DNA of 64,000 nt from Thermoanaerobaculia bacterium (lineage in GTDB: Bacteria; Acidobacteriota; Thermoanaerobaculia; UBA5066). Location: contig CAWFJJ010000024.1 in assembly GCA_963816185.1 (NCBI GenBank), positions 224,001-288,000 on the forward strand, written 5' to 3'. Shown in pieces: positions 14,495 through 62,013 of this stretch. Position numbers and translations under genes: made by a program. Each line of letters opens with the position of its first letter. Position 1 is the first letter of the stretch. The notes under the pieces are model-generated. The model was not told the DNA's origin, did no database searches, and saw only the letters and a program-made list of their open reading frames with translations.

Positions 14495-14586
14495 TATTTC
14501 GGATTTTCTTTGGAGATTGAAAGAGAGAACGCGCTGACTTGAAACGCACCGCCCGGGCCGCCGCCCTCTTCACCTTCTAAGAGAAA
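14495..14586. repeat. Inverted pair of the dispersed TTC-N3-GAA motif (tuf-rpsJ intergenic)
   Basis: GGATTTTCTTTGGAG (core 14506) and GCCCTCTTCACCTTCTAAGAGAA (core 14575); the right arm is nearly identical to 31443-31465. Confidence 0.65.
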
Positions 14587-14636
14587 GCGGCATTGCCCGG
14601 ACCGAGGCGCGACAGGCAACGCGAGGGAAGCAGAGA

Positions 14637-14954
14637 ATGGCTAACGACAGAATCCGCATCCGACTCAAGGGATACGACTACCGCATCCTCGACCAGTCGA
14701 CGACCGAGATCGTCGACACGGCGCGGCGCTCGGGCGCGAAGGTCGCGGGACCGATCCCGCTGCCGACGGCCATCGCGCGCTGGACGGTGAACCGCTCGCC
14801 GCACGTCGACAAGAAGTCGCGGGAGCAGTTCGAGATGCGGACGCACAAGCGCCTCCTCGACATCTTCGAGTGGACGCCGCAGACGGTCGACGCCCTCACG
14901 AAGCTCGAGCTTCCCGCGGGTGTCGAAGTCGAAATCCGGACGATGGGCAAGTAG
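14637..14954 (+). CDS. rpsJ: 30S ribosomal protein S10
   Basis: [31 protein letters not shown]. Confidence 0.99.
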
Positions 14955-14993
14955 ACCGTCCCGTCACACGAAGGCGGGACGAGGAAGCACACG

Positions 14994-15650
14994 ATGATCA
15001 ACGGAATTCTGGGACGCAAGATCGGGATGACCCAGGTCTTCGAGGCGGACGGCACGGTCGTGCCCGTCACCGTCGTCGAGGCGGGGCCCTGCCTGGTCGT
15101 CCAGCGCAAGACGAAGGACAACGATGGGTACGACGCGCTTCAGCTCGGCCTGGTCGGGCGCGTCTCGCCGCGGCGGCTCACGGCCCCCGCCAAGGGCCAC
15201 TTCGAGAAGGCGGGCGTGCCGCCGACGAAGACCCTCGGCGAGGTGCGTTGCGACGCGGACGAGAAGGCGGCGCCGGGCGACAAAGTGCTCTGCGACATCT
15301 TCGCCGAGAAAGAGCACGTCGACGTGGTCGGCGTCTCGAAAGGGAAGGGGTTCCAGGGCGTCATGAAGCGTCACGGCTTCGCCGGTGGCGCCGCCACGCA
15401 CGGCTCGATGTTCCACCGGGCCCCTGGCTCGATCGGACCCTCGGCCTTTCCGTCGCGGGTGTATGCCGGCACGCGGTCATCGGGTCGCATGGGCGGCAAG
15501 CAAACGACGATGAAGAACCTGGTCGTCGTGCGCGTCGACGCGGAGAACCACCTGCTCTACCTCCGGGGCGCGGTTCCGGGAGCGCGAAACACGGTCGTCA
15601 AGATCGTGAAGAAGCTCTCCGGGAGAAACGGCCGCGGGGCGGCTGCGTGA
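14994..15650 (+). CDS. rplC: 50S ribosomal protein L3
   Basis: [33 protein letters not shown]. Confidence 0.98.
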
Positions 15651-15661
15651 AGGGGACGACG

Positions 15662-16387
15662 ATGGCGACGACAAGAAAGACCCCTGCGGCGAAGGCCTCG
15701 GCGAAGAAGGCCGCGAAGAGTCCTGACGCGCCGTCGAGAGCGGTGAAGGCGGGCGAGGCCGCGTCTCTCACGCTCCCGATTCGGAACCTCGCGGCCGAGA
15801 GGGTGGGAGAGCTCACGCTCCCGGAGGAGATCTTCGGCGTTCCGTTCCGCCGCCACCTCGTCTGGGAGGTCGTGAAGCAGATCCGCGCGCGCGAGCACCG
15901 AGGCACGCACAAGACGAAGGTCCGTTCCGAAGTCTCCGGCAGCGGGAAGAAGCCGTTCAAGCAGAAGCACACGGGCCGCGCGCGGCAGGGCGGCGGGCGC
16001 CCGCCGATCCACCGGCACGGCGGCACGGCCTTCGGCCCGGTTCCGCACTCCTACGACCTGAAAGTCAATGCGAAGGCGAAGAAGGCGGCCCTGCGCTGCG
16101 TCCTCTCCGAGAAGGCGCGCGGCAACCAGGTGATCCTGCTCGACACCCTCGAGCTCGGCAGCCACAAGACGAAGGATTTCGCGGGCGTCCTCGCGAAGCT
16201 CGGCGTCGAAGGCAAGGCGCTCGTCCTCGACCGGAAGCAGAACGTCAACCTCTCGCGCGCGACCGCCAACAACCCGAAGGTTCAAGCGATGGACGTCCTC
16301 GGCATCAACGTCTACGACGCGCTGAACGCGGGCACGCTCGTCTTCTCCGAGGACGCGCTCCGCACGGCCATCGAGGTGCTGGCGTGA
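15662..16387 (+). CDS. rplD: 50S ribosomal protein L4 with Ala/Lys-rich N-terminal extension
   Basis: GTHKTKVRSEVSGSGKKP..QK.TGRARQG, GGTAFGP; position after rplC. Confidence 0.96.
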   Translation: MATTRKTPAAKASAKKAAKSPDAPSRAVKAGEAASLTLPIRNLAAERVGELTLPEEIFGVPFRRHLVWEVVKQIRAREHRGTHKTKVRSEVSGSGKKPFKQKHTGRARQGGGRPPIHRHGGTAFGPVPHSYDLKVNAKAKKAALRCVLSEKARGNQVILLDTLELGSHKTKDFAGVLAKLGVEGKALVLDRKQNVNLSRATANNPKVQAMDVLGINVYDALNAGTLVFSEDALRTAIEVLA

Positions 16388-16683
16388 GCGAAAGAACCAT
16401 GCAATCCGTGCTCGTGCGCCCCGTCCTCACCGAGCGCTCCACGGCCATGAGCCAGGCGCAGAACGTCCTCACGTTCGACGTCGCGCGCGACGCGAACAAG
16501 ATCCAGATCCGCAAAGCTGTCGAGGCCCTCTTCCAGGTCAAGGTGGACGCCGTCCGCGTCGTCGCCGTGTCCGGGAAGATCAAGAAGGTCGGCAAGTCGA
16601 TCGGCCGGGGCCAGGATCGCAAGAAGGCCTACGTGAAGCTGGCGAAGGGCCAGAAGCTTCCGGCCCTCTTCGAAGGGGTGTAA
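16384..16683 (+). CDS. rplW: 50S ribosomal protein L23
   Basis: PVLTERS, ANKIQIRKAVEALFQVKV, KKAYVKL. Confidence 0.96.
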   Translation: MSERTMQSVLVRPVLTERSTAMSQAQNVLTFDVARDANKIQIRKAVEALFQVKVDAVRVVAVSGKIKKVGKSIGRGQDRKKAYVKLAKGQKLPALFEGV

Positions 16684-16689
16684 CGCGCC

Positions 16690-17511
16690 ATGCCCGTCAA
16701 GTCGTACAAACCCACGTCTCCCGGGATGCGTCAGCGGACCACGTCCGACTTCTCGGAGATCACGAAGACCGGACCCGAGAAGTCGCTCACGAAGGGCAAG
16801 CTCAAGACCGGCGGCCGCGACAGCCGCGGCCATCTCACGTCGTGGTGGCGGGGCGGCGGACACAAGAAGCGCTACCGCGACATCGACTTCAAGCGCGACA
16901 AGCACGACATCCCGGCGAAGGTCGCCTCCATCGAGTACGACCCGAACCGGTCGGCGCGTATCGCTCTTCTCGCTTACGCAGACGGGGAGAAGCGCTACAT
17001 CGTGGCCCCCGCCGGCCTCAGCGTCGGGCAGACGGTCGTCTCCGGCGCCGCGGTCGACATCGTGGTCGGAAATGCCCTTCCGCTCAAGGCGATCCCGCTC
17101 GGCACGGTCGTGCACAACGTGGAGTTCAAGCCGGGCGGCGGCGGCCAGATGGCGCGGTCGGCCGGAGCGGGAGCGCAGCTCATGGCGAAGGAAGGGGCCT
17201 TCGCGCTCCTCCGCGTGCCGTCGGGCGAGCTCCGGCGCGTGGGCGTCGACTGCTACGCCACGATCGGCCAGGTCGGCAACCTCGAGCACGAGAACATCTC
17301 CATCGGCAAGGCCGGCCGCAACCGCTGGCTCGGCTGGAAGTCGCACAACCGCGGCGTCGCCATGAACCCCGTCGACCACCCGATGGGCGGCGGCGAGGGC
17401 AAGACTTCGGGAGGGCGCCATCCGACCTCGCCGTGGGGCTGGAAGACGAAAGGCATGAAGACGCGCAACAACAAGCGGACCGACGCCATGATCGTCAAGC
17501 GCCGCAAGTAG
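16690..17511 (+). CDS. rplB: 50S ribosomal protein L2
   Basis: [30 protein letters not shown]. Confidence 0.99.
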
Positions 17512-17527
17512 GGATTCGAGGAAACAC

Positions 17528-17885
17528 ATGTCTCGTTCCACGAAAAAGGGGCCGTTCGTCGACGCACCGCTCCTCGAGAAAATCACCGCGATGAACGCGG
17601 CCGGCGAGAAGCGTGTCTTGAAGACGTGGTCGCGCCGCTCGACGATCCTGCCCGACATGGTCGGCCACACGCTCGCCGTCCACAATGGCAAGAAGTTCAT
17701 TCCCGTCTACGTCTCCGAGAACATGGTCGGGCACAAGCTCGGCGAGTTCTCGCCCACCCGCATCTTCAAGGGCCACTCGGGCAAGAAGATCGAGAAGGGC
17801 GCGACGCCGGGCGCACCCGGCGCACCCGGGCGCTCCGGGCGCACCGGGCGCTCCCGCCCCGGCCGCGCCGGCGGCGAAGGCCTGA
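17528..17885 (+). CDS. rpsS: 30S ribosomal protein S19 with (GAP)n tail; apparent +1 frameshift near 17828
   Basis: [30 protein letters not shown]; removing one base gives [24 protein letters not shown] ending at TGA 17885, just before the rplV RBS. Confidence 0.93.
17810..17855 (+). repeat. 9-bp tandem repeat (GGCGCWCCS x5) encoding Gly-Ala-Pro
   Basis: ggcgcaccc ggcgcaccc g ggcgctccg ggcgcaccg ggcgctccc. Confidence 0.8.
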
Positions 17886-17896
17886 GGAGGAGCGCG

Positions 17897-18559
17897 ATGG
17901 AAGCAGTCGCCCGTCTCCGCCACTACCGGGGCTCCGCCCAGAAGGTGCGGCTCGTCGCCGACCTCATCCGGATGAAGCCGGTCGGAAAGGCTCTCGCGAC
18001 TCTGCGCACGACGCGCAAGAGCTGCTCGCCGGACCTCCTGAAGCTCGTGGAGTCCGCGATCGCGAACGCTCGGCAGAACGAGTCGGGCGTGGACGCGGAC
18101 GCGCTCGTCGTCTCGAAGATCCACGTCGACGAGGCCGGCAGGAAGCCCTTGCAGCGCAACTCCATGATCCGCGCGATCTCGAACTACAAAAAGCGCTTCG
18201 CCCGCCCACGCTTCATGAGCGGGCCGCAGGGCCGCATGTGGCTCATCCCGCGTCCTTTCTGCCACGTGACGGTCACTCTGTCGGACGACGCCGCCGCGCG
18301 GAAGGGTGCGGGCCTCAAGGCCGAAGCCCCGAAGCCTCTCGTGAAGAAGCGTCAGGGCCGTGTCGCGGCCGCCGTCTCCGCGGCGGCGCATCGCCCCGGC
18401 CGCGAGAATCGGGCGGTCGAGCGGGCGCACAAGAAGGTCGAGGCTGACGAGAAACGGGCCGACCGGATCGAAGCTGCGGAAGCCAAGCCCGCGGGGCCGA
18501 AGAGCGAAAAGCGCGAGAAGAAGTCGAAAAAGCCTACGAAGCCGGAATCGGCCGGGTAA
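17897..18559 (+). CDS. rplV: 50S ribosomal protein L22 with hairpin insertion and C-terminal tail
   Basis: AGGAGG RBS plus ATG; [29 protein letters not shown]. Confidence 0.93.
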
Positions 18560-18573
18560 CGGGAGTACACACG

Positions 18574-19221
18574 ATGGGCCAGAAAGTTCACCCCTACGGT
18601 TTTCGGATCGGCTACAACCGGACCTGGCACTCGCGCTGGTACGCCGAGAAGGACTACCTCAAGTACCTGCACGACGACCTGAAGCTCCGCGACGAGCTCA
18701 AGCGCGACCTCGTCAACGCGGCGGTCTCCGAGGTGGAGATCGAGCGCGGCAACAAGCTGAAGATCAACATCATGACCGCCCGGCCCGGCGTCATCATCGG
18801 GAAGAAGGGCGCGTCCGTGGACCAGCTCCGCGACCGGCTGCAGCAGCGGCTCGGGAAGGACATCCACGTGAACATCGTCGAGATCCAGCGCCCCGAGACC
18901 GACGCACAGCTCGTCGCCGAGTCCATCGCGATGCAGCTCGAGCGCCGCGTCGCCTTCCGCCGGGCGATGAAGAAGGGGATGGAGTCTGCCTTCCGCTTCG
19001 GCGCGCAGGGCATCAAGATCCGCTGCGGCGGACGCCTCAACGGCGCCGAGATCGCGCGCTCGGAGTGGTATCAGGAAGGCCGCCTCCCGCTTCATACGCT
19101 CAAGGCCGACATCGACTACGGCTTCGCCGAGGCGCGCACGACATACGGAAAGATCGGCGTCAAGTGCTGGATCTACAAGGGCGACCTGCATCGGGCCAAG
19201 TCCCGGAGAAAGGTCGCGTAG
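18574..19221 (+). CDS. rpsC: 30S ribosomal protein S3
   Basis: [31 protein letters not shown]. Confidence 0.99.
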
Positions 19222-19230
19222 GGGTTCTCG

Positions 19231-19656
19231 ATGTTGATGCCGTCGAAGGTCAAGTACAGGAAGCAGCAGCGCGGCCGCATGTGCGGCACCGCGCGCAAGG
19301 GTTCGGAGCTCTCTTTCGGGGAGTACGGGCTGCAGGCCGTCGAGCCGGGCTGGCTCACCGCCCGCCAGATCGAGGCCGGCCGCGTCGCGGTCCAGCGCCA
19401 CGTGAAGCGCGGGGGAAAGCTCTGGATCCGCGTGTTTCCCGACAAGCCGATCACGAAGAAGCCCGCCGAGACGCGCATGGGCAAGGGCAAGGGCGCGCCC
19501 GAAGGCTGGGTCTGCGTCATCAAGCCCGCCCGAATCCTGTTCGAGATGGAGGGCGTCGACGAGAAGACGGCGCGCCAGGCCTTCGGCCTCGCGTCGGACA
19601 AGATCGGGATCAAGACCCGCTTCGTGTCGCGCTCCTTCCTCGCGGCGGTGAGGTGA
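19231..19656 (+). CDS. rplP: 50S ribosomal protein L16
   Basis: [28 protein letters not shown]. Confidence 0.99.
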
Positions 19657-19660
19657 CGAG

Positions 19661-20179
19661 ATGACGATGAAGATCCAGGCCATGCTCGACTGGTCCCCCG
19701 AGGAGAAGGCCGCCAAGGCGAAGGAGTGGGCGCAGTCCCTCTTCACGCTCCGCCTCCAGAAGGCAACGGGCCAGCTCGAGAACCCGATGAAGATCAAGGA
19801 GCTCCGCAAGGACATCGCCCGCCTGAAGACCGCGCAGCACATGAGCGCGGCCGAGGCGGCGGCCGCGGCCGCGGCCGCCGAGGCCCACGAAGCGGCGACG
19901 ATTTCGGAGGGGACCGAAGAGAAGATTTCTGCGAATGAAAAGAGCGCGGCGGGGACGGCGAAACCGAAACCCCACGCCGCCGCATCGGGCAAAGGCGCCA
20001 AGAAGCGCGCCGCGGCCCACAAGAAGAAGGCTGCTGCGACGACGGGCAAGAGGGCCGCCGGCGCCTCCGCAAAGGCACATGCACCTTCTAAGAAATCTTC
20101 TACTTCCGGCGCTCCCGGCAAGACGGCCGGCGCCCCGAAGGCCAAGTCCGCCGCCTCGAAGAAGAGCAAGAAGAAGTAG
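19661..20179 (+). CDS. rpmC: 50S ribosomal protein L29 with about 110-aa Ala/Lys-rich tail
   Basis: [31 protein letters not shown]; position between rplP and rpsQ. Confidence 0.93.
19921..20100. repeat. Inverted pair of the TTC-N3-GAA motif inside the rpmC tail
   Basis: GAAGATTTCTGCGAATGAAAAGAG (core 19927) and CACCTTCTAAGAAATCTTC (core 20086). Confidence 0.75.
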
Positions 20180-20207
20180 TTCGTAACAGGAAGCAGTGAG
20201 CACGCCC

Positions 20208-20627
20208 ATGAGCAGCACCCCGAAATCCCAGCCGGAGACAGGCGCGGCATCCACGGCCGAACAGCCTCGTCGTAGCCGCAAGGTCGGGACCGTCGTCTCG
20301 AACAAGATGGAAAAGACCGTGGTCGTCGAGGTCTCGCGCCTCGTCAAGCACACTCGCTACGGCCGCTATCAGCGGAAGTCGGCGCGATTCCTGGCGGACG
20401 ACCGTGTCCTCAAGGCGCAGCCCGGCGACACCGTGCAGATCGAGGAGACCCGGCCCTTGTCGGCCCGTAAGCACTGGCGCGTGACGGCCATCGTGACGAA
20501 GGGCCGCGCCCTGGTCTCCGACACGGCCGAGGTGCCGGGCAGCGAGGCGAAGAGCCCGGCGAAGAGCGTTCCCGAGAGGAAGCTGCACGCGAAGGGCGCG
20601 TCCGAGCCGGCGGGGAGGGCGTCGTGA
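20208..20627 (+). CDS. rpsQ: 30S ribosomal protein S17 with terminal extensions
   Basis: [31 protein letters not shown]; alternative start GTG 20196. Confidence 0.95.
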
Positions 20628-20998
20628 TCCAGATGGGGACGATCCTCGAAGTCGCCGACAACTCCGGCGCCCGCCGGCTGGCGTGCATCAAGGTCCAGGG
20701 CGGCTCGACGGGCGATTTCGGCCGGATCGGCGACGTCATCACCTGCTCGGTGAAGGAGTCGAACCCGGACGCGCCCGACCCGGTCAAGAAGGGCAAGGTC
20801 GTCAGGGCCGTCATCGTGCGCACGGTGCGCGAGCAGCGGCGGCGCGACGGCAGCTACATCCGGTTCGACACGAACGCGGCGGTCCTCGTCAACAATGAAA
20901 GGGAGCCGATCGGGACCCGCGTGTTCGGGCCGGTCGCGCGCGAGCTGCGCGAGAAGAAGTTCATGAAGATCATCTCGCTCGCTCCGGAAGTCATCTGA
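20624..20998 (+). CDS. rplN: 50S ribosomal protein L14
   Basis: [33 protein letters not shown]. Confidence 0.99.
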
Positions 20999-21000
20999 CC

Positions 21001-21366
21001 ATGAAGAAAAAGCAGCCGACGTACACCGGGAAGCGCCGGATCCGCAAGGACGACGTCGTCGTCGTCCTCACGGGGAAGGACCGTGGGGCGCGCGGGAAGG
21101 TCCTCAAGGTGCTGCCCGAGAAGGGCCGCGCCGTCGTGGAGGGCGTGAACAAGATCAAGCGGGCCACGCGCGCGAATCCCCAGAAGAACATCAAGGGCGG
21201 CATCCTCGAGCGCGAGGCGCCGATCGCCCTGTCGAACCTCATGCTCGTCGACCCCGAGGGCGGCAAGCCGACGCGGGTGGGAATTCGACCCGAGGGCGGC
21301 GAGTGGGTGCGCTACGCCAAGAAGAGCGGCGCGACGATCGGCACGATCCGGCCGGCGGGCGAGTGA
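21001..21366 (+). CDS. rplX: 50S ribosomal protein L24
   Basis: KOW motif [25 protein letters not shown]. Confidence 0.97.
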
Positions 21367-21373
21367 GGACGAA

Positions 21374-21919
21374 ATGAGCAGCCCACGTCTCCAGGACAAG
21401 TACAAGAAGGACGTCATCCCGGTCCTCAAGAAGGAGTTCGGGATCGAGAACCTGATGGCCGTCCCGAAGCTGGAAAAGATCGTGCTCAACATGGGGATCG
21501 GCGAGGCCATCACGAACGCGAAGCTCGTCGACGCGGCCGCCGAGGAGCTCACGAAGATCGCCGGCCAGCGTGCCGTCGTCACGCGGGCGAAGAAGTCCAT
21601 CGCCACGTTCAAGCTGCGCGCGGGGATGCCGATCGGCTGCCGCGTGACGTTGCGCGGCGAGCGGATGTACGAGTTTCTCGACCGCCTCATGAACGTCGCG
21701 CTTCCGCGCGTGCGCGACTTCCGCGGCGTTCCGACGCGCTCGTTCGACGGACGCGGCAATTTCACGCTCGGCGTCAAGGACCATCTCATCTTTCCCGAAA
21801 TCGACCCCACGAAGATCGACAAGTCCAAGGGTCTCAACGTCACCATCGTCACAACGGCAGGCTCGGACGACCGGGCCCGGGTTCTCTTGAAAGAGCTCGG
21901 CATGCCGTTCGGCCGATAG
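21374..21919 (+). CDS. rplE: 50S ribosomal protein L5
   Basis: [28 protein letters not shown]. Confidence 0.99.
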
Positions 21920-21936
21920 CAGGGCAAGGAGCAGGC

Positions 21937-22122
21937 ATGGCTCGTCGCGCCGCCATCATCAAGGCGAACTCGAAACTGAAATACGCCATCCGCAAGCGAA
22001 ACCGCTGCATGCGCTGCGGCCGTCCGCGGGCGTTCATGCGGAAGTTCGGCTTGTGCCGCATCTGCTTCCGGAACCTCGCGCTCGCGGGCTACGTGCCCGG
22101 GGTGACGAAGGCGTCGTGGTGA
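21937..22122 (+). CDS. rpsN: 30S ribosomal protein S14, zinc-binding type
   Basis: [20 protein letters not shown]...PGVTKASW; 61 aa. Confidence 0.98.
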
Positions 22123-22132
22123 GGAGGGGGCG

Positions 22133-22531
22133 ATGAACATCAGCGATCCCGTCTCCGATCTCCTCGCACGCCTCAGGAACGCGTTGTCGGCCCGGCACGA
22201 GAAGGCCGACATTCCGTCGTCGCGCTTCAAGGTCGAGCTCGCCCGGATCCTCAAGGACGAGGGCTACATCAAGAATTTCAAGGTGATGGACGACCGGGGC
22301 GGCAGCCTGCTCCGCCTGTACCTCAAGTACGACGACACGGGGAATCCCGTCATTCACGGCCTCGCGCGCTCGAGCAAGCCGGGCCGGCGCCTCTACGCCG
22401 GCAAGAACGCGCTTCCCGAGGTTCTCGGCGGCCTCGGCGTCGCCATCGTGTCCACCTCGCAGGGCCTCCTCACCGGTCACGACGCGAAAAAGCGCGGCGT
22501 GGGCGGCGAGGTTGTCTGCACGGTGTGGTGA
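22133..22531 (+). CDS. rpsH: 30S ribosomal protein S8
   Basis: [29 protein letters not shown]. Confidence 0.98.
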
Positions 22532-22539
22532 GGAGCGAC

Positions 22540-23097
22540 ATGTCTCGAGTCGGTCAAAAGCCCATCTCCATTCCCAAGGGCGTCGACGTCCAGGTCGCGG
22601 ATCTTTCCGTCACGGTGAAGGGTCCGAAGGGCGCCGTCACAACGCCGATCCTCGCGGGCATCACGGTCGAGAAGAAAGACGGCATCGTCCGCCTCGCGCG
22701 CGCAGGCGAGGAGAAGAAGGACAAGGCGCTCCACGGCCTGAACCGCGCTCTTCTCCAGAACGCGGTCCTCGGCGTCACCCAGGGGTTCAAGCGCGAGATC
22801 GACCTCGTGGGCATCGGCTTCAAGGCCGAGGTCAAGGGACAGGCCGTCGTGTTCAGCGTCGGTTTCTCGCACGTCGTGAGGTTCCCGATGCCCGAGGGCA
22901 TCAAGGTCGAGGTCGCGCCGGACGCGAAGGCCAAGGACATCACGCACATCATCGTCACGGGCGTCGACAAGCAGAAAGTCGGCCAGACGGCGACCGAGAT
23001 CCGCGGGATTCGTCCGCCCGACCCGTACAAGCTGAAGGGATTCCGCTTCGTCGGCGAGGTCCTCAAGAAGAAGGCCGGCAAGGCCACGGGCAAGTAA
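22540..23097 (+). CDS. rplF: 50S ribosomal protein L6
   Basis: [25 protein letters not shown]. Confidence 0.98.
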
Positions 23098-23111
23098 GGA
23101 AGCAGGCAACC

Positions 23112-23480
23112 ATGGAAAAGGCACAAGCCCGGGTCGAAGCGAGGACGCGCATCCACACGCGCATCCGCACGAAGGTGAAGGGAACGGCCGCGCGGCCGCG
23201 CCTCGCCGTCTCCAAGACCCTCCGCTGGATCTCCGTGCAGCTCATCGACGATTCCGCAGGCACGACGCTCGCGCACGCGACGTCCCGCGAGACTCTCGTG
23301 CGCGGCGAGGCGAAGAGCGCGGCCAACAAGACGGCCGCCGTCAAGGTCGGTGCGCTCATCGCCGAGCGTGCCCAGGCAAAGGGCATCTCGGCCGTCGTGT
23401 TCGACCGCGGAGGCCATCTCTACCACGGCAACGTGAAAGCGCTCGCGGAAGCCGCTCGCGAGAAGGGGTTGAAGTTTTGA
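23112..23480 (+). CDS. rplR: 50S ribosomal protein L18
   Basis: [32 protein letters not shown]. Confidence 0.97.
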
Positions 23481-24136
23481 GCAGCAACGCGCCGACCAAT
23501 CGTCCCCCGCGCCCGAACCGTCCGGGCGGCAACCGTCCCGGCGGCCCGCCGCCTCGTCCGGCCGGCGCCCTCGGTGAGGGCCGCGCCGGAGCCGACCTCA
23601 TCGACCACGTCGTGCACATCAACCGCGTGACGAAGGTCGTCAAGGGCGGCAAGAACTTCTCGTTCTCGGCCCTCGTCGTCGTGGGCGACGGGCACGGCCG
23701 CGTCGGCTACGGCGCCGGCAAGGCGAAGGAAGTCCCGATGGCCATCAAGAAGGGGATCGAGATGGCCAAGAAGAAGATGATCAGCGTCCCGCTGAAGGGC
23801 AAGACGATCCCGCACCCCATCGTCGGCCACTACGGCGCGGGCCGCGTCATGCTCAAGCCGGCGTCCGAGGGCACGGGCGTCATCGCGGGCGGAGCCGTCC
23901 GCGCCGTGCTCGAGTCGGCGGGCGTCCAGAACATCCTCACGAAGTCGCTCGGCACGACGAACCCGCACAACGTCGTCAAGGCCACGTTCGACGCGCTCCA
24001 GCACCTGCAGCTCGAGGCGACGATCGCGAAGGCCCGCGGCGTGGGCAACGGCGAAGCGAAGGCGGAGGCGGTCCCGGCAGCACCGGTCGCGCCTGCGCCG
24101 GTTGCGGTTCCGGAGACCACGGAGAAGATCGGATGA
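23477..24136 (+). CDS. rpsE: 30S ribosomal protein S5 (TTG start, Pro/Gly-rich N-terminal extension)
   Basis: [23 protein letters not shown]; exact start uncertain. Confidence 0.96.
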
Positions 24137-24531
24137 GCGAGACGGACAAGACCGAGAAGATCGAGACCGAGAAGAAGAGGATTTCTTCGAAGGTGAATGC
24201 CCCGGCGCAGGCCGCTGCGGCGGAGCCGCGCGGCGCAGCCGAAGCGGGCGAGCAGGCAGCGCGCGCGCTTTCTAAGAATTCTTCCCCGGCCGCGTCAGCG
24301 GCCGTGCCGAAACCCCCGGCCGCCGCGAAGGCGGCGGCTCCGAAGCAGATCCGTATTCGCCAGATCAAGTCGGGCATCTGCGCGCCCGTCGATCAGAAGC
24401 AGACGCTCCTCGGGCTCGGCCTCCAGCGCATCCGGCACGAGGTCCTTCGCCCCGACACCCCGACGGTCCGGGGCCAGGTCCACAAAGTCCGCCACCTCGT
24501 CGAAATCGTCGAGGGTGGCGCGGCGAGGTAA
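24133..24531 (+). CDS. rpmD: 50S ribosomal protein L30 with about 70-aa N-terminal extension
   Basis: [10 protein letters not shown]...[10 protein letters not shown]...[16 protein letters not shown]; between rpsE and rplO. Confidence 0.92.
24177..24286. repeat. Inverted pair of the TTC-N3-GAA motif inside the rpmD extension
   Basis: GAGGATTTCTTCGAAGGTGAATG (core 24183) and CTTTCTAAGAATTCTTC (core 24270). Confidence 0.8.
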
Positions 24532-31468: not shown

Positions 31469-31488
31469 CCGATTCCCGGTCTCCGGTC

Positions 31489-36224: not shown

Positions 36225-37811
<1,587 letters not shown>

Positions 37812-37888: not shown

Positions 37889-37901
37889 GCCGGCCGCGCT
37901 T

Positions 37902-37989: not shown

Positions 37990-39537
37990 TTGGCCCTGAC
38001 CGCTCAGAACACGCTTCTCGTCGCCTCGGTGGCGCCGGCGTCGAACGCCGATGCCGTCCTCTCGCGCGAGGCCCTCGCCGATCTGCCTCCTTCGGCGGCG
38101 GTGGAATTACGCCTCGACGCGATGACCGAGGAGCCCGCATTCGGCGCGCTGCGCGCGCGCTTCGAAGGAAGAACACTCATCGCGACTGTCCGTTCCAAAG
38201 CCGAGGGCGGCGTGCTGCCGCGGACTGAAGAGGAAGAGAGGAGATTCTTAGAAGGTGCCCTCGCTGCGGGATTCGATCTCGCCGATGTCGAATTTCGCCG
38301 CGACGTGGGGGACCGCCTCGCCCGCATTCCTTCTTCTAAGAAAATCTCTTCCCTTCATGACCTTGAAGGCATCCCGGCCGACTTGAACACGGTCGTCACC
38401 CGGATGCTCTCGACCGGCGCGCGATACGTGAAGGTCGTCGCGACGGCGAACGATTCCGGCGACGCCCGCCGCCTCCTCGAGCTCCAGGCCGCGCACAGGG
38501 ACGGGCGCCTCACGGTGTTCGGAATGGGAGAGGCCGGCATCGCCACGCGGGCGCTCGCACCGTATCTCGGCGCGCCGCTCGCGTATGGCGCGCTTCTTCT
38601 CGGGCGGGCAACGGCGCCGGGCCAGCTCCTCGCCCGCGACCTCGTGGAGATCTACGGCGTGGCCCGGGCGCGAAAGGTGTCGAGTCTCTTCGGACTCCTT
38701 GGAGGCATGGTTTCGCACTCTCTCTCTCCGGTCATCCACAACGCCAACTTCGAGGCGCTCGGCCTCGACGCGATCTACGTACCATTTGCAATGCTCGTGC
38801 TTGGGAGAGAGCTCGAACCCCTCGTCAACTCGCTCGACACCCTCGGCGTTCGCCTCGCGGGCGCCTCCGTGACGATCCCCTTCAAGGAGGAGGCCGCGGC
38901 GCTTTCGGACGCGGGAGACGACGGCGAGAAAGCGGTCAACACGTTGCTGAGGTCGAGCGCTCCGGGCCAGCCGCTCAGGCTGCGAGCGGAAAACACCGAT
39001 CGCGCGGCGTTCGCGGCCGTGATCGAAGGGACGGGGGTCGCGCTCGTTCTCGGGGCGGGCGGCACCGCAAGGGTCGCCGTCGAAGTTCTGAGAAAGAGGA
39101 AATACGAGGTCTTTCTCATGAACCGAGGCGACGAGCGCGGCGAAGCGCTCGCGAAAGCCACGGGCGCCCATTACGTTTCTCAGAAATCCTCGATGGCCTT
39201 TCCCAGGCCGGACGTCCTCGTCAATGCCACGCCGCTCGGCCTGAAAGACGGCGATCCTCTTCCCTGCGAGCTGGGTCTTCTGCGCCGCGGGATGCTCGTC
39301 GTCGACGCGCCGTACCGCGCGACCGGCACGGAGCTCGTCAGGGCGGCACGCGCCGCGGGCGCGCGCGTCGTGGACGGCCAGACGCTGCTCCTTCTCCAGG
39401 CCGCGGGCCAGGCGACGCTTTTCACGGGCAAGAAGACGGCTCCGCGAGATCTTCTCGAGCGCCTGCCGTCGCATGCACGGCTGGCCTTCTCCTTTTTCGA
39501 AGAGCACCGCCCTGCGCTTCCGGGGATTTCGACATGA
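37990..39537 (+). CDS. aroE: Bifunctional type I 3-dehydroquinate dehydratase / shikimate dehydrogenase (AroD-AroE)
   Basis: AVELRLD, ATVRSKAEGG, SLHD, GMGEAG, APGQL; then SHSLSPVIHN, SVTIPFKE, AVNT, NTD, LGAGG, VNATPLG. Confidence 0.9.
   Translation: MALTAQNTLLVASVAPASNADAVLSREALADLPPSAAVELRLDAMTEEPAFGALRARFEGRTLIATVRSKAEGGVLPRTEEEERRFLEGALAAGFDLADVEFRRDVGDRLARIPSSKKISSLHDLEGIPADLNTVVTRMLSTGARYVKVVATANDSGDARRLLELQAAHRDGRLTVFGMGEAGIATRALAPYLGAPLAYGALLLGRATAPGQLLARDLVEIYGVARARKVSSLFGLLGGMVSHSLSPVIHNANFEALGLDAIYVPFAMLVLGRELEPLVNSLDTLGVRLAGASVTIPFKEEAAALSDAGDDGEKAVNTLLRSSAPGQPLRLRAENTDRAAFAAVIEGTGVALVLGAGGTARVAVEVLRKRKYEVFLMNRGDERGEALAKATGAHYVSQKSSMAFPRPDVLVNATPLGLKDGDPLPCELGLLRRGMLVVDAPYRATGTELVRAARAAGARVVDGQTLLLLQAAGQATLFTGKKTAPRDLLERLPSHARLAFSFFEEHRPALPGIST
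38240..38350. repeat. Inverted pair of the TTC-N3-GAA motif in the AroD domain
   Basis: GAGATTCTTAGAAGGTG (core 38245) and CCTTCTTCTAAGAAAATCTC (core 38334). Confidence 0.75.
39082..39191. repeat. Inverted pair of the TTC-N3-GAA motif in the AroE domain
   Basis: AAGTTCTGAGAAAGAG (core 39086) and TTACGTTTCTCAGAAATCCTC (core 39177). Confidence 0.65.
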
Positions 39538-51732: not shown

Positions 51733-52945
51733 GGCAACTGGAGCCGATTTCCGTCCGCCCGAGGCCGACGCGCAGGGCCGCTTCGGCGCGTTCGGCGGGC
51801 GGTTCGTGCCGGAGACGCTCATGGCGCCGCTCGAGGAGCTCTCCCGCGCGTACAGGGACGCCCGGCGCGATCCCGCGTTCCGGCGCGAGCTGGACGGCCT
51901 CCTGAGGACGTATGCCGGCCGGCCGACGCCCCTCACGTATGCGAAACGGCTCTCGGAGGACCTCGGCGGCGCGCGCATCTTCCTCAAACGCGAGGATCTC
52001 CTCCACACGGGCGCTCACAAGATCAACAACGCCCTCGGCCAGGCCCTCCTCACGGTCCGGATGGGGAAGTCGCGGGTCATCGCGGAAACCGGCGCCGGCC
52101 AGCACGGCGTCGCGACGGCGACCGCGTGCGCGCTCCTCGGGCTCTCGTGCGTCGTTTACATGGGGGCGGTCGACGTCGAGCGCCAGGCCCTGAACGTGTA
52201 CCGGATGAAGCTCCTCGGCGCGACGGTCGTGCCCGTCATGGGCGGCACGCGGACGCTGAAGGACGCGATCAACGAGGCCATGCGCGACTGGGTCGCCTCG
52301 ACGGCGTCGACGCACTACATTCTCGGATCGGTCCTCGGGCCGCATCCGTTTCCGACGATGGTCCGCGACTTTCACGCGGTCATCGGGCGCGAGGCCCTCG
52401 CCCAGAGCCGCAAGGCACTCGGAAAGCTGCCGGACGTCCTCGTCGCGTGCGTGGGCGGCGGCTCGAACGCGATCGGCCTCTTCCGGGAATTCCTTACGTT
52501 TCGCGAGGTCGAGATGGTGGGGGTCGAAGCCGGAGGCCGGAGCCTTGCGCCCGGCGAGCACGCCACGCGCTTCGGCCCGGGCTCGATCGGCGTCCTCCAT
52601 GGCACGCGTACGCTCATCCTTCAAGACGCGGACGGGCAGGTTCTCCCCACGCATTCCGTTTCCGCCGGCCTCGACTATCCGGCCGTCGGACCCGAGCACG
52701 CGCGCCTCGCCGAGCTCGGGCGGACGCGGTACGTCTCCGTCGGTGACGAGGCCGCCCTCGCGGCCTTTCACCGGCTCGCCGAGACCGAAGGCATCATCCC
52801 GGCCCTCGAGACCGCGCATGCTGTCGCCTGGGCGATCGCGGAGGCTCCTCGCCGGCCGAAGAGTGCCGCTCTCCTCGTGAATCTCTCCGGCCGCGGTGAC
52901 AAGGACGTCGTCTCGGTGGCGCGGCGCGAGGGGGTGACGCTGTGA
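51725..52945 (+). CDS. trpB: Tryptophan synthase beta chain
   Basis: [50 protein letters not shown]. Confidence 0.98.
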
Positions 52946-57192: not shown

Positions 57193-58092
57193 GTGAGCGT
57201 CTCAGCATACGGACTCACCGATGTCGGACGGAAGAGACGTCACAACGAGGATGCCTACCTCCTCGACGCCGAACGCGGCCTTTTCGTGGTCGCGGACGGC
57301 ATGGGCGGACACGCCGCGGGTGAAGTTGCCTCGCGGATCACCGTCGAATCGATTCAGGAGTACATCGCCGCCACCGAGGAGGAGCACGAGAGCTCGTGGC
57401 CCTTCGGCTTCAACAGCCGGGTCTCGCTCGAAGGAAACCGTCTCACGACGGCCGTCGAGAAGGCGAACGAGAAGGTCATGCGGGCGGTGCAGAACAGGCC
57501 CGAGCTGAAAGGCATGGGCACGACCGTCGTCGCGGCTCTCTTCGACGCCGACCGCGCGACGCTCGTGCACGTGGGCGACAGCCGCGCCTACCTCTTTCGC
57601 GATGGAGAGCTTCGGCGTCTCACGGACGACCACTCGTGGGTTCAGGAACAGGTCAACGCCGGCATCCTCAGCGAGGACGAAGCCAAGAGCCACCCCCTCA
57701 AGAACGTCGTGACGCGCGCGCTCGGCGGCGCGACGCACGTTTCCGTCGACCTCATCGAGGTTCCGGTGCGTTCGGGCGACCGCTTCCTCCTGTGCTCCGA
57801 CGGCCTGACAGGCATGGTCCCCGACGAGGATCTCTTCGCCCGCTTCAAGTCCGAAGACGGACTCGAAAAGACCGTACGACAGCTCATCGACGTTGCGAAT
57901 GACCGCGGCGGCGTGGACAACATAACGGCAATCCTCGTCGAGGTCGCGGGAGATCCGGCGGCCAAGGACGGAGGCCGCGCCGGCAGCGAGGCGATCCGGC
58001 GACAGATCGTGACCTCGGGCGAGAGCACGGCGGTCAACGCCGAGGCTCCGGGAACCCCCTCACCCGACTCCGACTCCAAACCCCAGAGCTGA
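57193..58092 (+). CDS. PP2C-family Ser/Thr protein phosphatase (Stp1-like)
   Basis: TDVGRKR.HNED, VADGMGGH, GMGTT, HVGDSRAY, LCSDGL, GGVDNIT. Confidence 0.95.
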   Translation: MSVSAYGLTDVGRKRRHNEDAYLLDAERGLFVVADGMGGHAAGEVASRITVESIQEYIAATEEEHESSWPFGFNSRVSLEGNRLTTAVEKANEKVMRAVQNRPELKGMGTTVVAALFDADRATLVHVGDSRAYLFRDGELRRLTDDHSWVQEQVNAGILSEDEAKSHPLKNVVTRALGGATHVSVDLIEVPVRSGDRFLLCSDGLTGMVPDEDLFARFKSEDGLEKTVRQLIDVANDRGGVDNITAILVEVAGDPAAKDGGRAGSEAIRRQIVTSGESTAVNAEAPGTPSPDSDSKPQS

Positions 58093-59546
58093 TGCGGGGA
58101 GCGGCACGTCTCGGTGCGGTCCTTTTCCTGTCTTCTGTCACGCTGCTTCCCTGCGTTCCGGCGACCTCGAGCGTCCTGGAGGAGGCGTCGGACGCCGCGG
58201 CTGCGCGGCGGCGCACGGAGATCCTCCGCTCGCCTTACACCCGCCCCGTCGAGCGCCGCGTGCTGCGGGGCGGAGAGCTGCTCGTGAGCTTCGACGCAGG
58301 GGTCCCTGCTGTGCTTCGCGACGAGCTGTCCCTCGATCTCAACGCGTTCGTCTCGACTCTCGTGGATCGGGACGGCTGGCCGCGCCCGCTCTCCGCCCGA
58401 TCGCCCCTGCTCGTCCTGTTCACGGCGGGACCGGGCGTCACGGCCGCGGGCTGGGACGGCCGGGATCGCAACGGTACGCTGCGCTCGCCGGTCATCCTCG
58501 TCGCCTCCGCGACACGCGCGAATGGCGCCGCGCTCGCCGACGCGGCCGCCCAGGTTGCCCTCCTGTCGCTGCGGCAGGCGGCTCCCGTCGAGCCGTCATG
58601 GGCCGTGGAGGGCGTCGCCGCCTGGCTTTGGCGCCGCGACCTCGGGCCCGACCTTTCTCGTGTCCCGACTTCCGATCCGCTCCTCGAGGAAGCCGGCGAC
58701 TTGACGACGCCGGACGTCCTCGCGGCCTTCCTCGTGGCTCTCGAGAGCCGCCTCCCGAAGGGTTCCCAGGACGTGCGTGAGGCCTGGGAGCAGGCGGGGG
58801 AGCGCGGAGACGACGCGGACGCTTTTCTTCGCGACCTGGCCAAGAGGAGCGGCTCCGCGAGCCTCGGCGCTCGCGTGGCCGAGATCGTCGCCTCGCATCT
58901 CGGTGCGTCCAGCAGGCGTCGAAGCGATTCGCCGGCGGTCGCCCGGAGAATCTGGCTCTCCGGAGACGTCGTTCCGGCGGCGCCCGCGCCGCTCGGCTGG
59001 AGGCGGGTCTCCCTGCGTACCGAGGACGAGCGGGCCGGGCTGGAAATCGCGCTCCCCGATGCGGGAATGCACGCAGCGAGGCTTCTTCTCTTCTACCGCG
59101 GGGACGCCGGCTTCGACTCCCTGCCGGTCCTTCCGGGTACCGCGCGCGTCGTCCCGGCCGCGGGGACCTCGAGCGTCGAGGTCGTGCTCGCCGACGGTGA
59201 CGGAGCTCCCGAGGCGCGCTTCCACGTGAGTCGCGTGCCGGACTATCCGGCGGCGCTTGCGAGCTCGCGGGCCGGCTGGACGAGCGGCGGCGTCGAGATC
59301 GCCTGGGAGACGTCCCGGCACGAGGATCTTCTCGGCTGGGTCGTGGAACGTCGCGACGAAACGGACGGCGACGCGGCCCTCGAACGCAGCACCCTTCCCG
59401 CAACGAAGTCCTCCGAGGGCGCGACGGGCTACGTCTGGCTCGACCGAGACGCGGCTCCGGGCCGTCGCTACCGCTACCGCGTCCTCGCGCTCACCGAAGA
59501 CGGCCTCCTCGGCGAGGCGTTCGAATCGTCGGTGGAGACGAGATAG
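58092..59546 (+). CDS. Secreted hypothetical protein with FN3-like C-terminus
   Basis: Signal peptide; C-terminal VEIAWET...GWVVER...Y.WLD....PGRRYRYRV. Confidence 0.7.
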   Translation: MRGAARLGAVLFLSSVTLLPCVPATSSVLEEASDAAAARRRTEILRSPYTRPVERRVLRGGELLVSFDAGVPAVLRDELSLDLNAFVSTLVDRDGWPRPLSARSPLLVLFTAGPGVTAAGWDGRDRNGTLRSPVILVASATRANGAALADAAAQVALLSLRQAAPVEPSWAVEGVAAWLWRRDLGPDLSRVPTSDPLLEEAGDLTTPDVLAAFLVALESRLPKGSQDVREAWEQAGERGDDADAFLRDLAKRSGSASLGARVAEIVASHLGASSRRRSDSPAVARRIWLSGDVVPAAPAPLGWRRVSLRTEDERAGLEIALPDAGMHAARLLLFYRGDAGFDSLPVLPGTARVVPAAGTSSVEVVLADGDGAPEARFHVSRVPDYPAALASSRAGWTSGGVEIAWETSRHEDLLGWVVERRDETDGDAALERSTLPATKSSEGATGYVWLDRDAAPGRRYRYRVLALTEDGLLGEAFESSVETR

Positions 59547-62013
59547 CGTCTTCTCGACTGCCGGAAACGGGCAGCTCTCCCCCTCTTACCCTTTCGAAGA
59601 AATCCTTGGTTCTTCCTCCCACGTCCAGACACGCGAGCTCGCCGGGCTCGTCGAGGTACCAGTCGGAGGGCAGGTAGCGGCTGTACGGGGCCTGCAGGAA
59701 GCGCCGGCAGGCGAGGACGACGACGCCCGTGTCGGTGCCCGAGCGAATGAGGCGCCCCGCGCTCTGCACGACGCGCGTCATGCCGGGGATGACGTACGCG
59801 TACTCGAAACCGCGCTCGAACCGCTCCTCGAAGTAGCGGCGCATGCGCTCCTGCTCGAAGCGGACCATGGGCAGACCGGGCGAGACGACGACGACGGCCT
59901 GAAGCATCTCGCCCGGGTAGTCGACGCCCTCGGCGAACGCGCCTCCCGATACGGCGAAGACGACGACGGGCGCTCCGCCGTCCTTCATCGCCGCGAGGAC
60001 GGAGTTCCGCTCCAGCTCGGTCGATCGATCGGACGGCCTGAGAACGCGGCGCCCGGCCAGCGCGGGCAGGTGGGCGCGCACCTCGTCGAGAAAGCGGTAC
60101 GACGGGAAGAGCGCCAGCATGTTGCCCGGGCACGCGCGCGCCACGTCCGCGACGAGGGCCGCGAGGCGCGGGGCGCCGCGCCCGCGCGCCGCGTACGTGG
60201 TATCCACGTCCGGCGCGACGAGGACGGAGCGGTTCTCGCGCGGAAAGGGCGAGGGAAGGCGGAGGACCGACGTGCGGTCGGGGTCGAGGCCGAGGAGATC
60301 GCGGTAGAACTCGGGCGGAGAGAGCGTGGCGGACATCGAGACCGTGGCGGCCGCCGCGTTCAGGGTCTCGCCGAGGAGCTTCGAGGGATCCTTGCAGAGG
60401 ATCGCGAGCCGCGCGCCGCCCCTGCCGCGCGCCGCGAGGACGTCGAAGGGCCCCTCGGACATGGCACGGCCTGGCGGGGGCACGAATTTTGACACGTCGT
60501 GAAACCGCGCAAACGAGAAGTAGAGGTCGAGAACGGGATCGTCGGGCACACGCTCGCCGCCGGCGCGCAGGTCCGCGAGGTGGCGCACGAGAAGGGACTC
60601 GAAGTCGAGGCGCAAGTCGTCGAGACGCGCATCGTCCAGGGCCACGAGATCGACGGGCTCGCTCTCGTCCTGGGGAAGGACGGCGGCCGCGTCCGCGACG
60701 AGCTTGCGCAGACGCCGCGCGGCCTCGCCCGCGTCCCAGGCCGTCTTCGCGTTCGAGACGCCGATGCGCTCCTCGAGCGATGCCAGGGAAGAGTCGGAGA
60801 GCTCGGGCGAGTAGTAGCCGCGTCCGCGGTCCACGAGGTTGTGAGCCTCGTCGACGAGGAGGATCGATTCGGAGAGCACGGAGGGGTCGCGCGCGCCTGC
60901 AAGCGCGACCACCGGGTCGAAGACGTAGTTGTAGTCGCCGAGAACGACGTCGGCCTGCTCGGCGAGCTCGAGGGAAACTTCGAAGGGGCAGACGGTCTCG
61001 TTGCGGGCGGCCTCGAAGACGGTGTCCGGGTCGAGGTGGCGGTGTCTCTCGAGGAGCCGGTCGAGGAGGCCCGAAGCCTCCATCTTGGCGCCGTAGTCCT
61101 TCGCGTACGGGCAGTGGTTCTCGTGGCACAGCACGACGTCGTTTGCGCACATGCGCTCTTTCGCGCGGAGCCTGACGGACCGAAAGGACTCGCCGTCGAT
61201 CGCGGCCAGGGTCTTTTCGTAGATCTCCTGCTGCGTCGTCTTCGCCGTGAGGACGAAGAGGCGGCGGTGCGACTCGAGAGCGCCGACGAGAAGGGGATGG
61301 AGTGCGGCGGCCGTCTTCCCGATGCCGGTCGGGGCCTCGACCAGGAGATGCTCGCCGTGTGCGACCGCACGCGCGACGGCGGAAGCCATCTCTCGCTGGC
61401 CGGTCCGGAAGCGCGCGTGCGGGAAGGCGAGCGTCGCGGCCTCGGCGGCTTTCGCCTCGGCAAGGGCCCGTTCCTCGAGGAACGCGTCCAGAAGCATCCG
61501 CGTACGGTCCACGAGGTCCTCGAGGGTCTTCTCAGGCTCATGCGACACGTCGAGGACCTTCGTCGCGCCCGTCTCGATGTCCGCGAGAATGAGGCGCCCG
61601 TGAACGGCGCGCCCTTCGGCAGCGGCGACGGCCTGCATGTACCAGCGAAGCTGGAGCCGAAAGCGCTCGAGGCGCGGGGATCCGGGAAGCTTCGCGAGAT
61701 CCTCGGCGAAATGGAGCGACTTGACCTCGTCCACGACGACCCGACCGCCCTCCTCGAAGCGGCCGTCGAGCCGCCCTTCGAGCACTGCGGTGAAGTCGTC
61801 CACCGCGTAGGAGAGCCGAATCGCTTTCTCGACCTCGTAGCCGGGCACGCTCGCGAGGCTCTCACCGAGCACGCGCCGGTGCACCGCCTGGCCGATCCAG
61901 AGTCGCTCGAAGCCCTCGCCCCGGTCGAAGCCGGCCCGTCGCGCGACGCCGCCGAGAAGGGTCCCGGGGGAAACCGCGATCGTCTTCGCCGCGAGGTCGA
62001 CCGTGAGCGCCAC
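59491..62013 (-). CDS. Fe-S DinG/XPD(Rad3)-family helicase with N-terminal PD-(D/E)XK nuclease-like domain
   Basis: LEGRLDG...VDEVKS; FRTGQ, EAPTGIGKT, Cys cluster CAND..C....CPY...CPFE, DYNYVFDP, VDEAHN, MSATL, QSAGRLIRS. Confidence 0.9.
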   Translation of the reverse strand: MALTVDLAAKTIAVSPGTLLGGVARRAGFDRGEGFERLWIGQAVHRRVLGESLASVPGYEVEKAIRLSYAVDDFTAVLEGRLDGRFEEGGRVVVDEVKSLHFAEDLAKLPGSPRLERFRLQLRWYMQAVAAAEGRAVHGRLILADIETGATKVLDVSHEPEKTLEDLVDRTRMLLDAFLEERALAEAKAAEAATLAFPHARFRTGQREMASAVARAVAHGEHLLVEAPTGIGKTAAALHPLLVGALESHRRLFVLTAKTTQQEIYEKTLAAIDGESFRSVRLRAKERMCANDVVLCHENHCPYAKDYGAKMEASGLLDRLLERHRHLDPDTVFEAARNETVCPFEVSLELAEQADVVLGDYNYVFDPVVALAGARDPSVLSESILLVDEAHNLVDRGRGYYSPELSDSSLASLEERIGVSNAKTAWDAGEAARRLRKLVADAAAVLPQDESEPVDLVALDDARLDDLRLDFESLLVRHLADLRAGGERVPDDPVLDLYFSFARFHDVSKFVPPPGRAMSEGPFDVLAARGRGGARLAILCKDPSKLLGETLNAAAATVSMSATLSPPEFYRDLLGLDPDRTSVLRLPSPFPRENRSVLVAPDVDTTYAARGRGAPRLAALVADVARACPGNMLALFPSYRFLDEVRAHLPALAGRRVLRPSDRSTELERNSVLAAMKDGGAPVVVFAVSGGAFAEGVDYPGEMLQAVVVVSPGLPMVRFEQERMRRYFEERFERGFEYAYVIPGMTRVVQSAGRLIRSGTDTGVVVLACRRFLQAPYSRYLPSDWYLDEPGELACLDVGGRTKDFFERVRGGELPVSGSREDAISSPPTIRTPRRGGRLR
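59580..59606. repeat. Single strong copy of the motif at the helicase 3' end
   Basis: CCCTCTTACCCTTTCGAAGAAATCC (core 59593), near-identical to the reverse complement of 50114-50138. Confidence 0.75.

Follow-up and report, generated by a model that had tools for sequence, protein, structure and literature searches.

The window, by which we mean the whole stretch of DNA that was analysed, comprises 64,000 nucleotides of contig CAWFJJ010000024.1 from a metagenome assembly of a Thermoanaerobaculia bacterium (GCA_963816185.1, here designated G000), and corresponds to G000:C24:224001-288000. The assembly totals 5,088,052 bp in 30 contigs, with 67% GC and an estimated contamination of 3.4%. Pfam searches bore out the gene names given in a first-pass annotation of this DNA, namely those for the ribosomal proteins L29, L30 and L17 and for HisA, AroD-AroE, TrpC-TrpF, CysS, HisD/HisC and TrpD. 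Overprinted on these genes, and also lying between genes, are copies of a short DNA motif, which we call arms, that face one another in inverted pairs. These arms belong to a real, abundant, genus-wide and conserved paired DNA signal that overprints coding sequence.

Arms in the window

Arms were scored with a 27-bp position weight matrix (PWM) built on seed copies of the exact core GATTTCTTNGAA, with a score of at least 14 as the usual cut-off. The annotation had claimed more than 25 copies of the motif; the PWM returned 29 sites across the window, of which 27 fall within 14,495-59,606. Its left-arm motif GAGGATTTCTTNGAANGG, searched at up to 3 mismatches, gave 15 matches in the window, compared with 0.53 expected and a maximum of 4 in 100 shuffles. 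The loci are listed below, with PWM scores in brackets and distances measured from centre to centre of the arms.

tuf-rpsJ spacer, 14495..14590: degenerate left arm at about 14495-14520; right arm 14564-14590, minus strand (16.0)
L29 (rpmC) C-terminal tail pair: 19920-19946, plus strand (29.9); 20075-20101, minus strand (34.0); 157 bp
L30 (rpmD) N-terminal tail pair: 24176-24202, plus strand (30.6); 24259-24285, minus strand (19.3); 85 bp
Pair downstream of the L17 domain: 31367-31393, plus strand (24.8); 31444-31470, minus strand (21.8); 79 bp
cysS linker regions: tandem left arms 37252-37278 (33.2) and 37288-37314 (28.8), 36 bp apart; right arm 37611-37637 (31.8)
aroD single right arm: 38323..38349, minus strand (19.8)
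aroE pair: left arm 39079-39105 (14.4, weak); right arm 39166-39192 (24.8); 89 bp
hisD N-terminal pair: left arm 41379-41405 (20.2); right arm 41453-41479 (23.7); 76 bp
hisD internal pair: left arm 42155-42181 (24.1); right arm 42216-42242 (29.5); 63 bp
hisA pair: left arm 45161-45187 (32.4), encoding EDFLE; right arm 45233-45259 (20.7), encoding LLRKS; 74 bp
trpD/trpC junction: tandem left arms 50069-50095 and 50111-50137 (both 36.5), 42 bp apart; right arm 50299-50325 (14.5, weak)
trpF nested arms: left arms 51103-51129 (19.1) and 51142-51168 (27.5), 39 bp apart; right arms 51331-51357 (15.5) and 51373-51399 (32.8)
Single right arm: 59582..59608, minus strand (33.3)

Our distances agree to within about 2 bp with those reported earlier for the pairs in rpmC, rpmD, aroE, hisD and hisA and for the pair at 31379/31458, and the spacings of the tandem left arms in cysS, trpD/C and trpF were as given. 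Some of the pairs listed in the annotation were less complete than described. At 14506/14575 the right arm is present and the left arm is degenerate, scoring below 14, while the aroE pair exists with a weak left arm. A second pair in aroDE proved to be a single right arm (38337) in G000, with a left partner scoring at least 12 in G039 and G014 among six genus genomes. A pair placed in trpE is reduced to one arm that reaches 14 (59596), and the 484-amino-acid open reading frame (ORF) once called trpE, at 58092-59543, had no Pfam match at an E value of 1e-5 or better and is outscored by an 840-amino-acid ORF on the opposite strand (59491-62013).

Form and abundance of the motif

The G000 genome contains 195 exact copies of the core GATTTCTTNGAA. 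When these copies were aligned, the core was preceded by a purine-rich run and followed by G-[G/T]-[G/A]-A-A-[G/A]-[A/G]-G-G, with the sequence back at background past about position +23. An arm is a polar site of approximately 27 bp with an invariant core, TTCTT-N-GAA-N-G, and purine-rich flanks on either side, of which the outer ones are variable purine-rich runs.

An iterated PWM drifted to A-rich low complexity and was dropped in favour of the seed PWM with local shuffles. Reversing the genome gives a poor null, as the motif is close to its own mirror image. Genome-wide counts were compared with three local shuffles that kept composition in 30-bp blocks: there were 951 matches at a score of at least 14 versus 31-45 in the shuffles, and 557 at a score of at least 20 versus 0-3. 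Merging of matches left 932 sites, split 460 to 472 between the strands, at a density of about 1 per 5.4 kb. Within called coding sequences (CDS) the null consisted of three shuffles of synonymous codons within each gene. Here 550, 377 and 245 matches were found at scores of at least 14, 18 and 22, compared with 169-187, 54-62 and 14-21 in the shuffles, a 3- to 13-fold excess that rises with the threshold, so the motif is enriched over codon-preserving shuffles. Sites per base are 2- to 4-fold scarcer on contigs C29, C25, C8 and C5 than on C24 and C28, and given the contamination estimated for the assembly these site-poor contigs may be accessory or mis-binned DNA.

Arms form convergent pairs

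Across the genome, a plus-strand site was followed by a minus-strand neighbour in 303 cases, 251 of them within 250 bp, versus 292 cases of minus followed by plus, with 9 within 250 bp; the ordered orientation and spacing reported for the window are thus non-random genome-wide. Neighbouring sites on the same strand cluster at 30-50 and 70-90 bp. Of the 444 strong arms (score at least 22), 78-81% have an inverted partner (score at least 8-10) lying 40-260 bp away on the inner, GAAGAGGG, side, compared with just 2-4% on the outer side. The convergent pair is therefore the unit. Within a pair the GAAGAGGG ends point towards each other, and the arms are separated by 65-250 bp, with a mode of 73-76 bp. 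A spike at 91 bp consists of 17 paralogous Ser/Thr kinase genes whose arms lie on conserved peptides. These kinase paralogues excepted, pair interiors of equal length are unrelated between loci. By eye, the interior of the L17 pair contains a GC hairpin followed by a T-run.

The kinase genes carry their pair at exactly 91 nt, over the peptides EEFFEGEE and YSFEEIP. Six of the 17 lie in one 18-kb cluster, the locations being G000:C24:602903-620300 and 12 other places. Kinases of the sister genus have weaker forms of the same two peptides.

Arms within and between genes

Called genes contain 571 of the 932 sites (61%) and the remaining 361 (39%) are intergenic, an approximately 3-fold intergenic excess, though the majority of sites are in ORFs. 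The 251 pairs divide into 134 inside one gene, 84 between genes and 33 across a gene boundary, and intergenic pairs usually begin 20-60 bp past a stop codon. The host frame had the best coding signal in 86% of the interiors of genic pairs versus 98% of their flanks. It had been claimed for hisA and aroD that the DNA between arms still encodes the enzyme, and we found native enzyme sequence there in aroE and hisA and, by eye, in trpF, where native PRAI sequence is joined by a variable Gly/Ala/Arg-rich insert.

Arms within genes occupy all six frames (n = 73, 31, 69, 39, 64 and 84); the annotation had described overprinting on coding sequence in all three frames. The central base of the core depends on the frame. 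In intergenic arms (n = 299) it is A in 198, C in 77, T in 18 and G in 6, while two frames, in which an A at this position would create a TAG or TAA stop, have C in 47 of 64 and 61 of 73 arms. Arms in genes are therefore translated, with the preferred base set at the level of DNA. Together with the excess over codon shuffles and the intergenic sites, this supports the proposal that the constraint lies on the nucleic acid rather than on the protein.

Three ribosomal protein genes in the window, those for L29 (19661-20179), L30 (24133-24531) and L17 (30703-31632), have long low-complexity tails that hold motif pairs; the Pfam domains cover amino acids 12-60 of 172, 73-123 of 132 and 20-116 of a 309-amino-acid open frame, respectively. 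At 41355-43655 a single open frame without an internal stop covers both histidinol dehydrogenase and an aminotransferase of class I/II (hisC-like), and the HisD profile matches only positions 125-322 of 411.

Taxonomic range and conservation

A scan of one genome per species found at least 114 stretches with the extended motif; among the matches listed, nearly all were in metagenome-assembled genomes of Thermoanaerobaculia or Acidobacteriota. Exact 14-mers numbered 59-273 per genome in 18 of 18 genomes of the genus, compared with 0-4 in 12 genomes of the order that belong to two other families. When genomes were drawn from the whole class, the counts were 59-207 in 10 of 10 genus genomes versus 0-4 in 140 others, of which 6 came from other genera of the same family. 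A reversed-pattern control gave at most 1. The counts include G019 (1+1) and G024 (3+1), and the conclusion that the motif is confined to one Thermoanaerobaculia genus is independent of both. The genus is one of soil bacteria and has no member in culture.

Six genus genomes share 46 kb of synteny with the window, with 77-88% nucleotide identity. The 27 window sites in these six genomes make 162 cells, of which 36 could not be aligned; 109 of the remaining 126 score at least 12. Eight sites are retained in all six genomes and 16 in at least four, and both the L29 right arm and the internal hisD pair are retained in six of six. Over 23 sites in the six genomes, identity at TTCT and GAA is 0.91-0.99 versus approximately 0.77 in the flanks.

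The hisA gene was found in 29 of 29 genus genomes, and 25 full-length copies were analysed after L021, L022, L024, L027 and L030 were dropped as partial or duplicate; L026 was also dropped from the codon and compensation comparison, which covers 24 genomes. The left arm scores at least 24 in 25 of 25 copies and the right arm at least 12 in 22 of 25. The codons GAT TTC TTA GAA and CTT CTA AGA AAA TCT persist, and the codons of the interior vary synonymously. Judging from these alignments, the core is conserved at synonymous sites and the arms are under purifying constraint.

Gain, loss and turnover of arms

In the sister genus, represented by G082, HisA has nearly the same peptides at the arm positions (EDFLER and LLRR), encoded by the GC-rich codons GAG GAT TTC CTG GAG and CTT CTG AGG. 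At the same positions, the codons of three genera further away in the family are unrelated; these same-family genera were used since HisA gave no match at an E value of 1e-15 or better in five genomes from other families of the order. Two other orthologous positions in G082 align without gaps and lack arms (scores 3.6 and 1.7). A 400-kb sample of G082 had 14 PWM matches at a score of at least 14, compared with 132 in a like-sized piece of G000, and contained no enriched alternative word, either AT-rich or any other 10-mer. Relative to five outgroup genomes, the aroE arms stand in place of native residues: the left arm entails no indel, and one additional amino acid lies near the right arm. At the 59596 locus G003 and G011 have non-motif sequence of equal length. 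The evidence from hisA, aroE, trpF and 59596 makes substitution on already similar sequence a main route, and arms have been gained largely through synonymous or conservative substitution on motif-like sequence.

Length changes also occur. At 59596, G039 has a full pair and about 110 extra bases. Arm units of 36-42 bp have been gained or lost in the purine-rich linkers of cysS, trpD/C and trpF, and in the hisA genes of L023 and L025 a 102-nt unit of arm, interior and arm is tandemly duplicated in frame. Just outside the hisA right arm (45260-45300) lies a poly-Ser run whose length differs among genus genomes, from none to about 25 residues. The whole rpmD pair is absent in G008, and G011 has two left arms at this locus. 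The tuf-rpsJ spacer has a scored left arm in G008 and G038 and a scored right arm in G038, G014 and G039, so that both are scored in G038 alone; G003 and G011 could not be placed. Contigs of four soil metatranscriptomes, compared over 14,401-24,400, are mostly 90-95% alike to the window and therefore come from relatives; they cannot show transcript ends or levels and give no evidence on transcription in the window's own organism. Some of these contigs join 24155 to 24313 through 19 purine-rich bases, and those relatives accordingly lack the rpmD pair.

Proposed paired DNA sites for a protein

We favour, at a probability of roughly 45%, the reading that the arms are paired double-stranded-DNA sites for a sequence-specific protein, whose symmetric complex would bridge each pair into a micro-loop of about 75-90 bp. 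Each arm would be read on double-stranded DNA by a protein of the genus, and a two-fold symmetric (bidentate) complex would hold both arms and so clamp the loop. Approximately 330 such loci per genome might then serve nucleoid or topology organisation rather than the control of single genes. The same sequence is kept at hundreds of loci, which calls for a common trans-acting reader, and the two arms of an inverted pair are the same sequence on double-stranded DNA only, which points to reading of the duplex. Arm polarity had no bias relative to the G-rich strand (448 versus 427), nor did the polarity of unpaired arms relative to the gene strand (72 versus 78), as would fit a symmetric complex.

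Several points weigh against this reading. No binding protein was identified for the arms, so a binding-site system is something that we infer. An extra ParB/Noc paralogue was sought and not found, most genomes having 2 ParB_N matches whether they belong to the genus or to other genera of the family. Sites are spread very unevenly, at 0-34 per 50 kb, and exact-copy number varies 4.6-fold between species (59-273), which is more dynamic than a fixed architectural set. Helical phasing of the pair distances is marginal, with a period of 9-9.5 bp that 4% of jittered nulls reach, uncorrected, and no AT-rich, bend or IHF-like site was found at the pair midpoint. The 17 kinase pairs represent one paralogous family whose protein already resembles the motif. 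Arm conservation could come from continuing drive or gene conversion instead of from selection for binding. All of the genomes compared are metagenome assemblies, the gene calls (4,361 genes, 86% of the genome) are those of our own crude codon-usage caller, and the conservation profile rests on sites chosen in one genome.

A broader proposal, which we hold tentatively and consider rather unlikely, is that the pairs act as a new kind of chromosome punctuation. Here several hundred micro-loops, each about 75-90 bp long, would be held by a genus-specific bidentate DNA-binding protein, also within essential genes (hisA, trpF, hisD, cysS and ribosomal protein genes), at sites recruited from codons by synonymous change and co-evolving with the proteome.

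Known site systems offer partial parallels. The sites of parS/ParB, Noc, SlmA and matS/MatP are sequence-specific, occur in coding DNA and are kept across relatives; they are single palindromes in tens of copies, unlike the approximately 930 polar paired sites found here, and no lineage-specific ParB_N gene accompanies the latter. HIP1 (GCGATCGC) of cyanobacteria is, like the arms, a hyper-abundant word kept by selection both within and between ORFs, and the part of PMC5861425 drawn on here reports no peptide, RNA or gene-regulation role found for it and a proposed role in nucleoid structure. HIP1 is, however, an 8-bp perfect palindrome with no pairing geometry, in contrast to a polar site of about 27 bp in convergent pairs. 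Searches of Rfam and the literature found no match to a described repeat or RNA family: Rfam gave 0 matches at the gathering score over the whole window and 0 at an E value of 1 or better over 36,000-52,000, and a literature search outside article supplements returned no description of the motif words or of repeats of Thermoanaerobaculia.

The idea of a dispersed nucleic-acid site system put forward in the first-pass annotation has therefore stood, and of the four options that it offered the protein site and the uptake signal survive, while an mRNA structure and a decayed cassette are disfavoured for the reasons given below.

Alternative explanations

The motif might be favoured by the DNA uptake or recombination machinery and spread by substitution wherever proteins tolerate it, with no chromosomal role, as in the uptake signal sequences (USS) of Pasteurellaceae and the DNA uptake sequences (DUS) of Neisseriaceae. 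We regard this as unlikely, although the spread by substitution into ORFs, in all frames, equally on both strands and in one genus is what it would produce. The pattern matches USS/DUS as given in the portion of PMC2817400 used here, in which they are lineage-specific, reach hundreds to thousands of copies with many in ORFs (956 of 1,471 for its first genome), and build up in tolerated frames and at poorly conserved residues. Genes for ComEC and DprA are present, but they are also found in 10-11 of 14 control genomes and their presence therefore says little. What this explanation does not account for is the near-obligate convergent pairing at 65-250 bp, since the USS/DUS unit is a single site of 9-12 bp and here, for approximately 80% of strong arms, a facing partner lies at a distance of 40-260 bp; the density of about 1 per 5.4 kb also argues against it. 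We know of no counterpart to this pairing among uptake signals, and a search of the literature on DNA uptake sequences in Acidobacteria found nothing related.

The inverted doublets also resemble those of repetitive extragenic palindromic (REP) sequences, two of which in inverted orientation make up a REPIN. The arms could then be transposase-recognised ends, as in REPINs or miniature inverted-repeat transposable elements (MITEs), with the present set old and mostly immobile or domesticated. This has, in our judgement, a low probability. As far as the part of PMC3337134 drawn on here describes them, REP doublets and REPINs of Pseudomonas, and the bacterial interspersed mosaic elements (BIMEs) of E. 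coli, share with the arms a motif of about 25 bp, hundreds of copies, mostly inverted doublets spaced 70-110 bp apart (commonest spacings 71 and 110 bp), spacers that differ at each locus, no two being alike, and lineage-specific, vertical persistence. The indel polymorphism of the rpmD pair (absent in G008) and of 59596 (the extra bases with the pair in G039) would fit such an origin, as would the tandem duplicate in hisA of two genomes.

By the same partial account, REPs are mainly extragenic, with an imperfect palindrome of their own, a hairpin spacer and a cognate Y1 transposase flanked by REPs. The arms depart from this in that 61% of sites are in CDS, the interiors are unstructured host coding sequence rather than hairpins, and partner arms match no better than permuted ones. 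No Y1/RAYT transposase (PF01797) was found in G000. This family is present in 3 of 20 genus genomes versus 21 of 21 genomes of the family's other genera, the inverse of the distribution of the motif. The three Y1 genes within the genus are not flanked by arms, as two have no motif nearby and the third has its nearest match about 500 bp away, on one side. Between distant arm pairs there is no coding element, the ORFs being housekeeping-like by eye, with no family search made. In G082, two 99%-identical units of about 1 kb at L209 (G082:C2:67000-80000) carry Y1_Tnp, are bounded by a 24-nt inverted repeat unlike the motif and so look like an active insertion sequence; AT-rich direct repeats of 42-63 nt lie close to these units.

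Palindromic repeats can also lie in frame inside protein genes, as Rickettsia palindromic elements and Correia-type MITEs do. Those are inserted cassettes with a conserved interior that adds a peptide, whereas the interiors here share no similarity between loci and encode the host enzyme. The annotation had allowed for a decayed element of the Rickettsia type; the origin of the arms through substitution in native codons, the purifying constraint on them and the lack of a shared interior speak against it.

An RNA-level signal, in which the two arms pair in the transcript as a long stem that is cleaved or bound (e.g., by RNase III) and so tunes mRNA stability, is very unlikely. Many pairs do lie just past stop codons or within operons, and whole pairs fold better than shuffles (z of about -2.6 to -2.9), which is because both arms match the consensus; the interior itself is unstructured (z about 0). 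At none of 61 positions did the two arms of a pair agree better than permuted partners, and changes in the hisA arms across 24 genomes are not compensated in the other arm. Differences compatible and incompatible with G·U pairing are equal by transcription direction (358 versus 355 genic, 97 versus 114 intergenic), and a constraint on pairing alone would not hold one sequence at every locus. With no covariation and no wobble asymmetry, the annotation's suggestion of an mRNA structural signal finds little to favour it. Two further ideas were rejected: the 16S 3' end is canonical and so offers no special complementarity of an anti-Shine-Dalgarno kind, and the arm spacing misfits a -35/-10 pair by eye, with no promoter scan made.

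That the arms are a by-product of protein or composition, through a favoured peptide, a cluster of rare codons or chance AT-rich islands, is wildly improbable and is refuted for the bulk of sites, for although the native EEFFE and SFEE peptides of the kinase family resemble arms in the sister genus too and codon shuffles still yield 169-187 matches at a score of at least 14, 39% of sites lie between genes, arms occur in six frames and in both orientations, the excess over synonymous shuffles is 13-fold at a score of at least 22, and orientation and spacing are strict.

Implications

Only a small number of DNA words are known whose presence inside bacterial genes is maintained throughout a lineage by selection or drive. 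USS/DUS, HIP1 and Chi are the chief ones, and to our knowledge none of these has an obligatory paired geometry. The arms provide a natural experiment, since the signal is in one genus and not in its sister genera, and the state before single sites arose is visible in the sister genus. They also constitute a readable dual code, in which the central base switches with the reading frame. The arms create rare-codon islands, low-complexity tails and length-variable linkers, and in metagenome assemblies of Acidobacteriota these can lead gene callers and alignments astray. The prediction is that a lineage-specific reader should exist, and its discovery would show the birth of a genome-wide site system and what such a system costs the proteins that it overprints.

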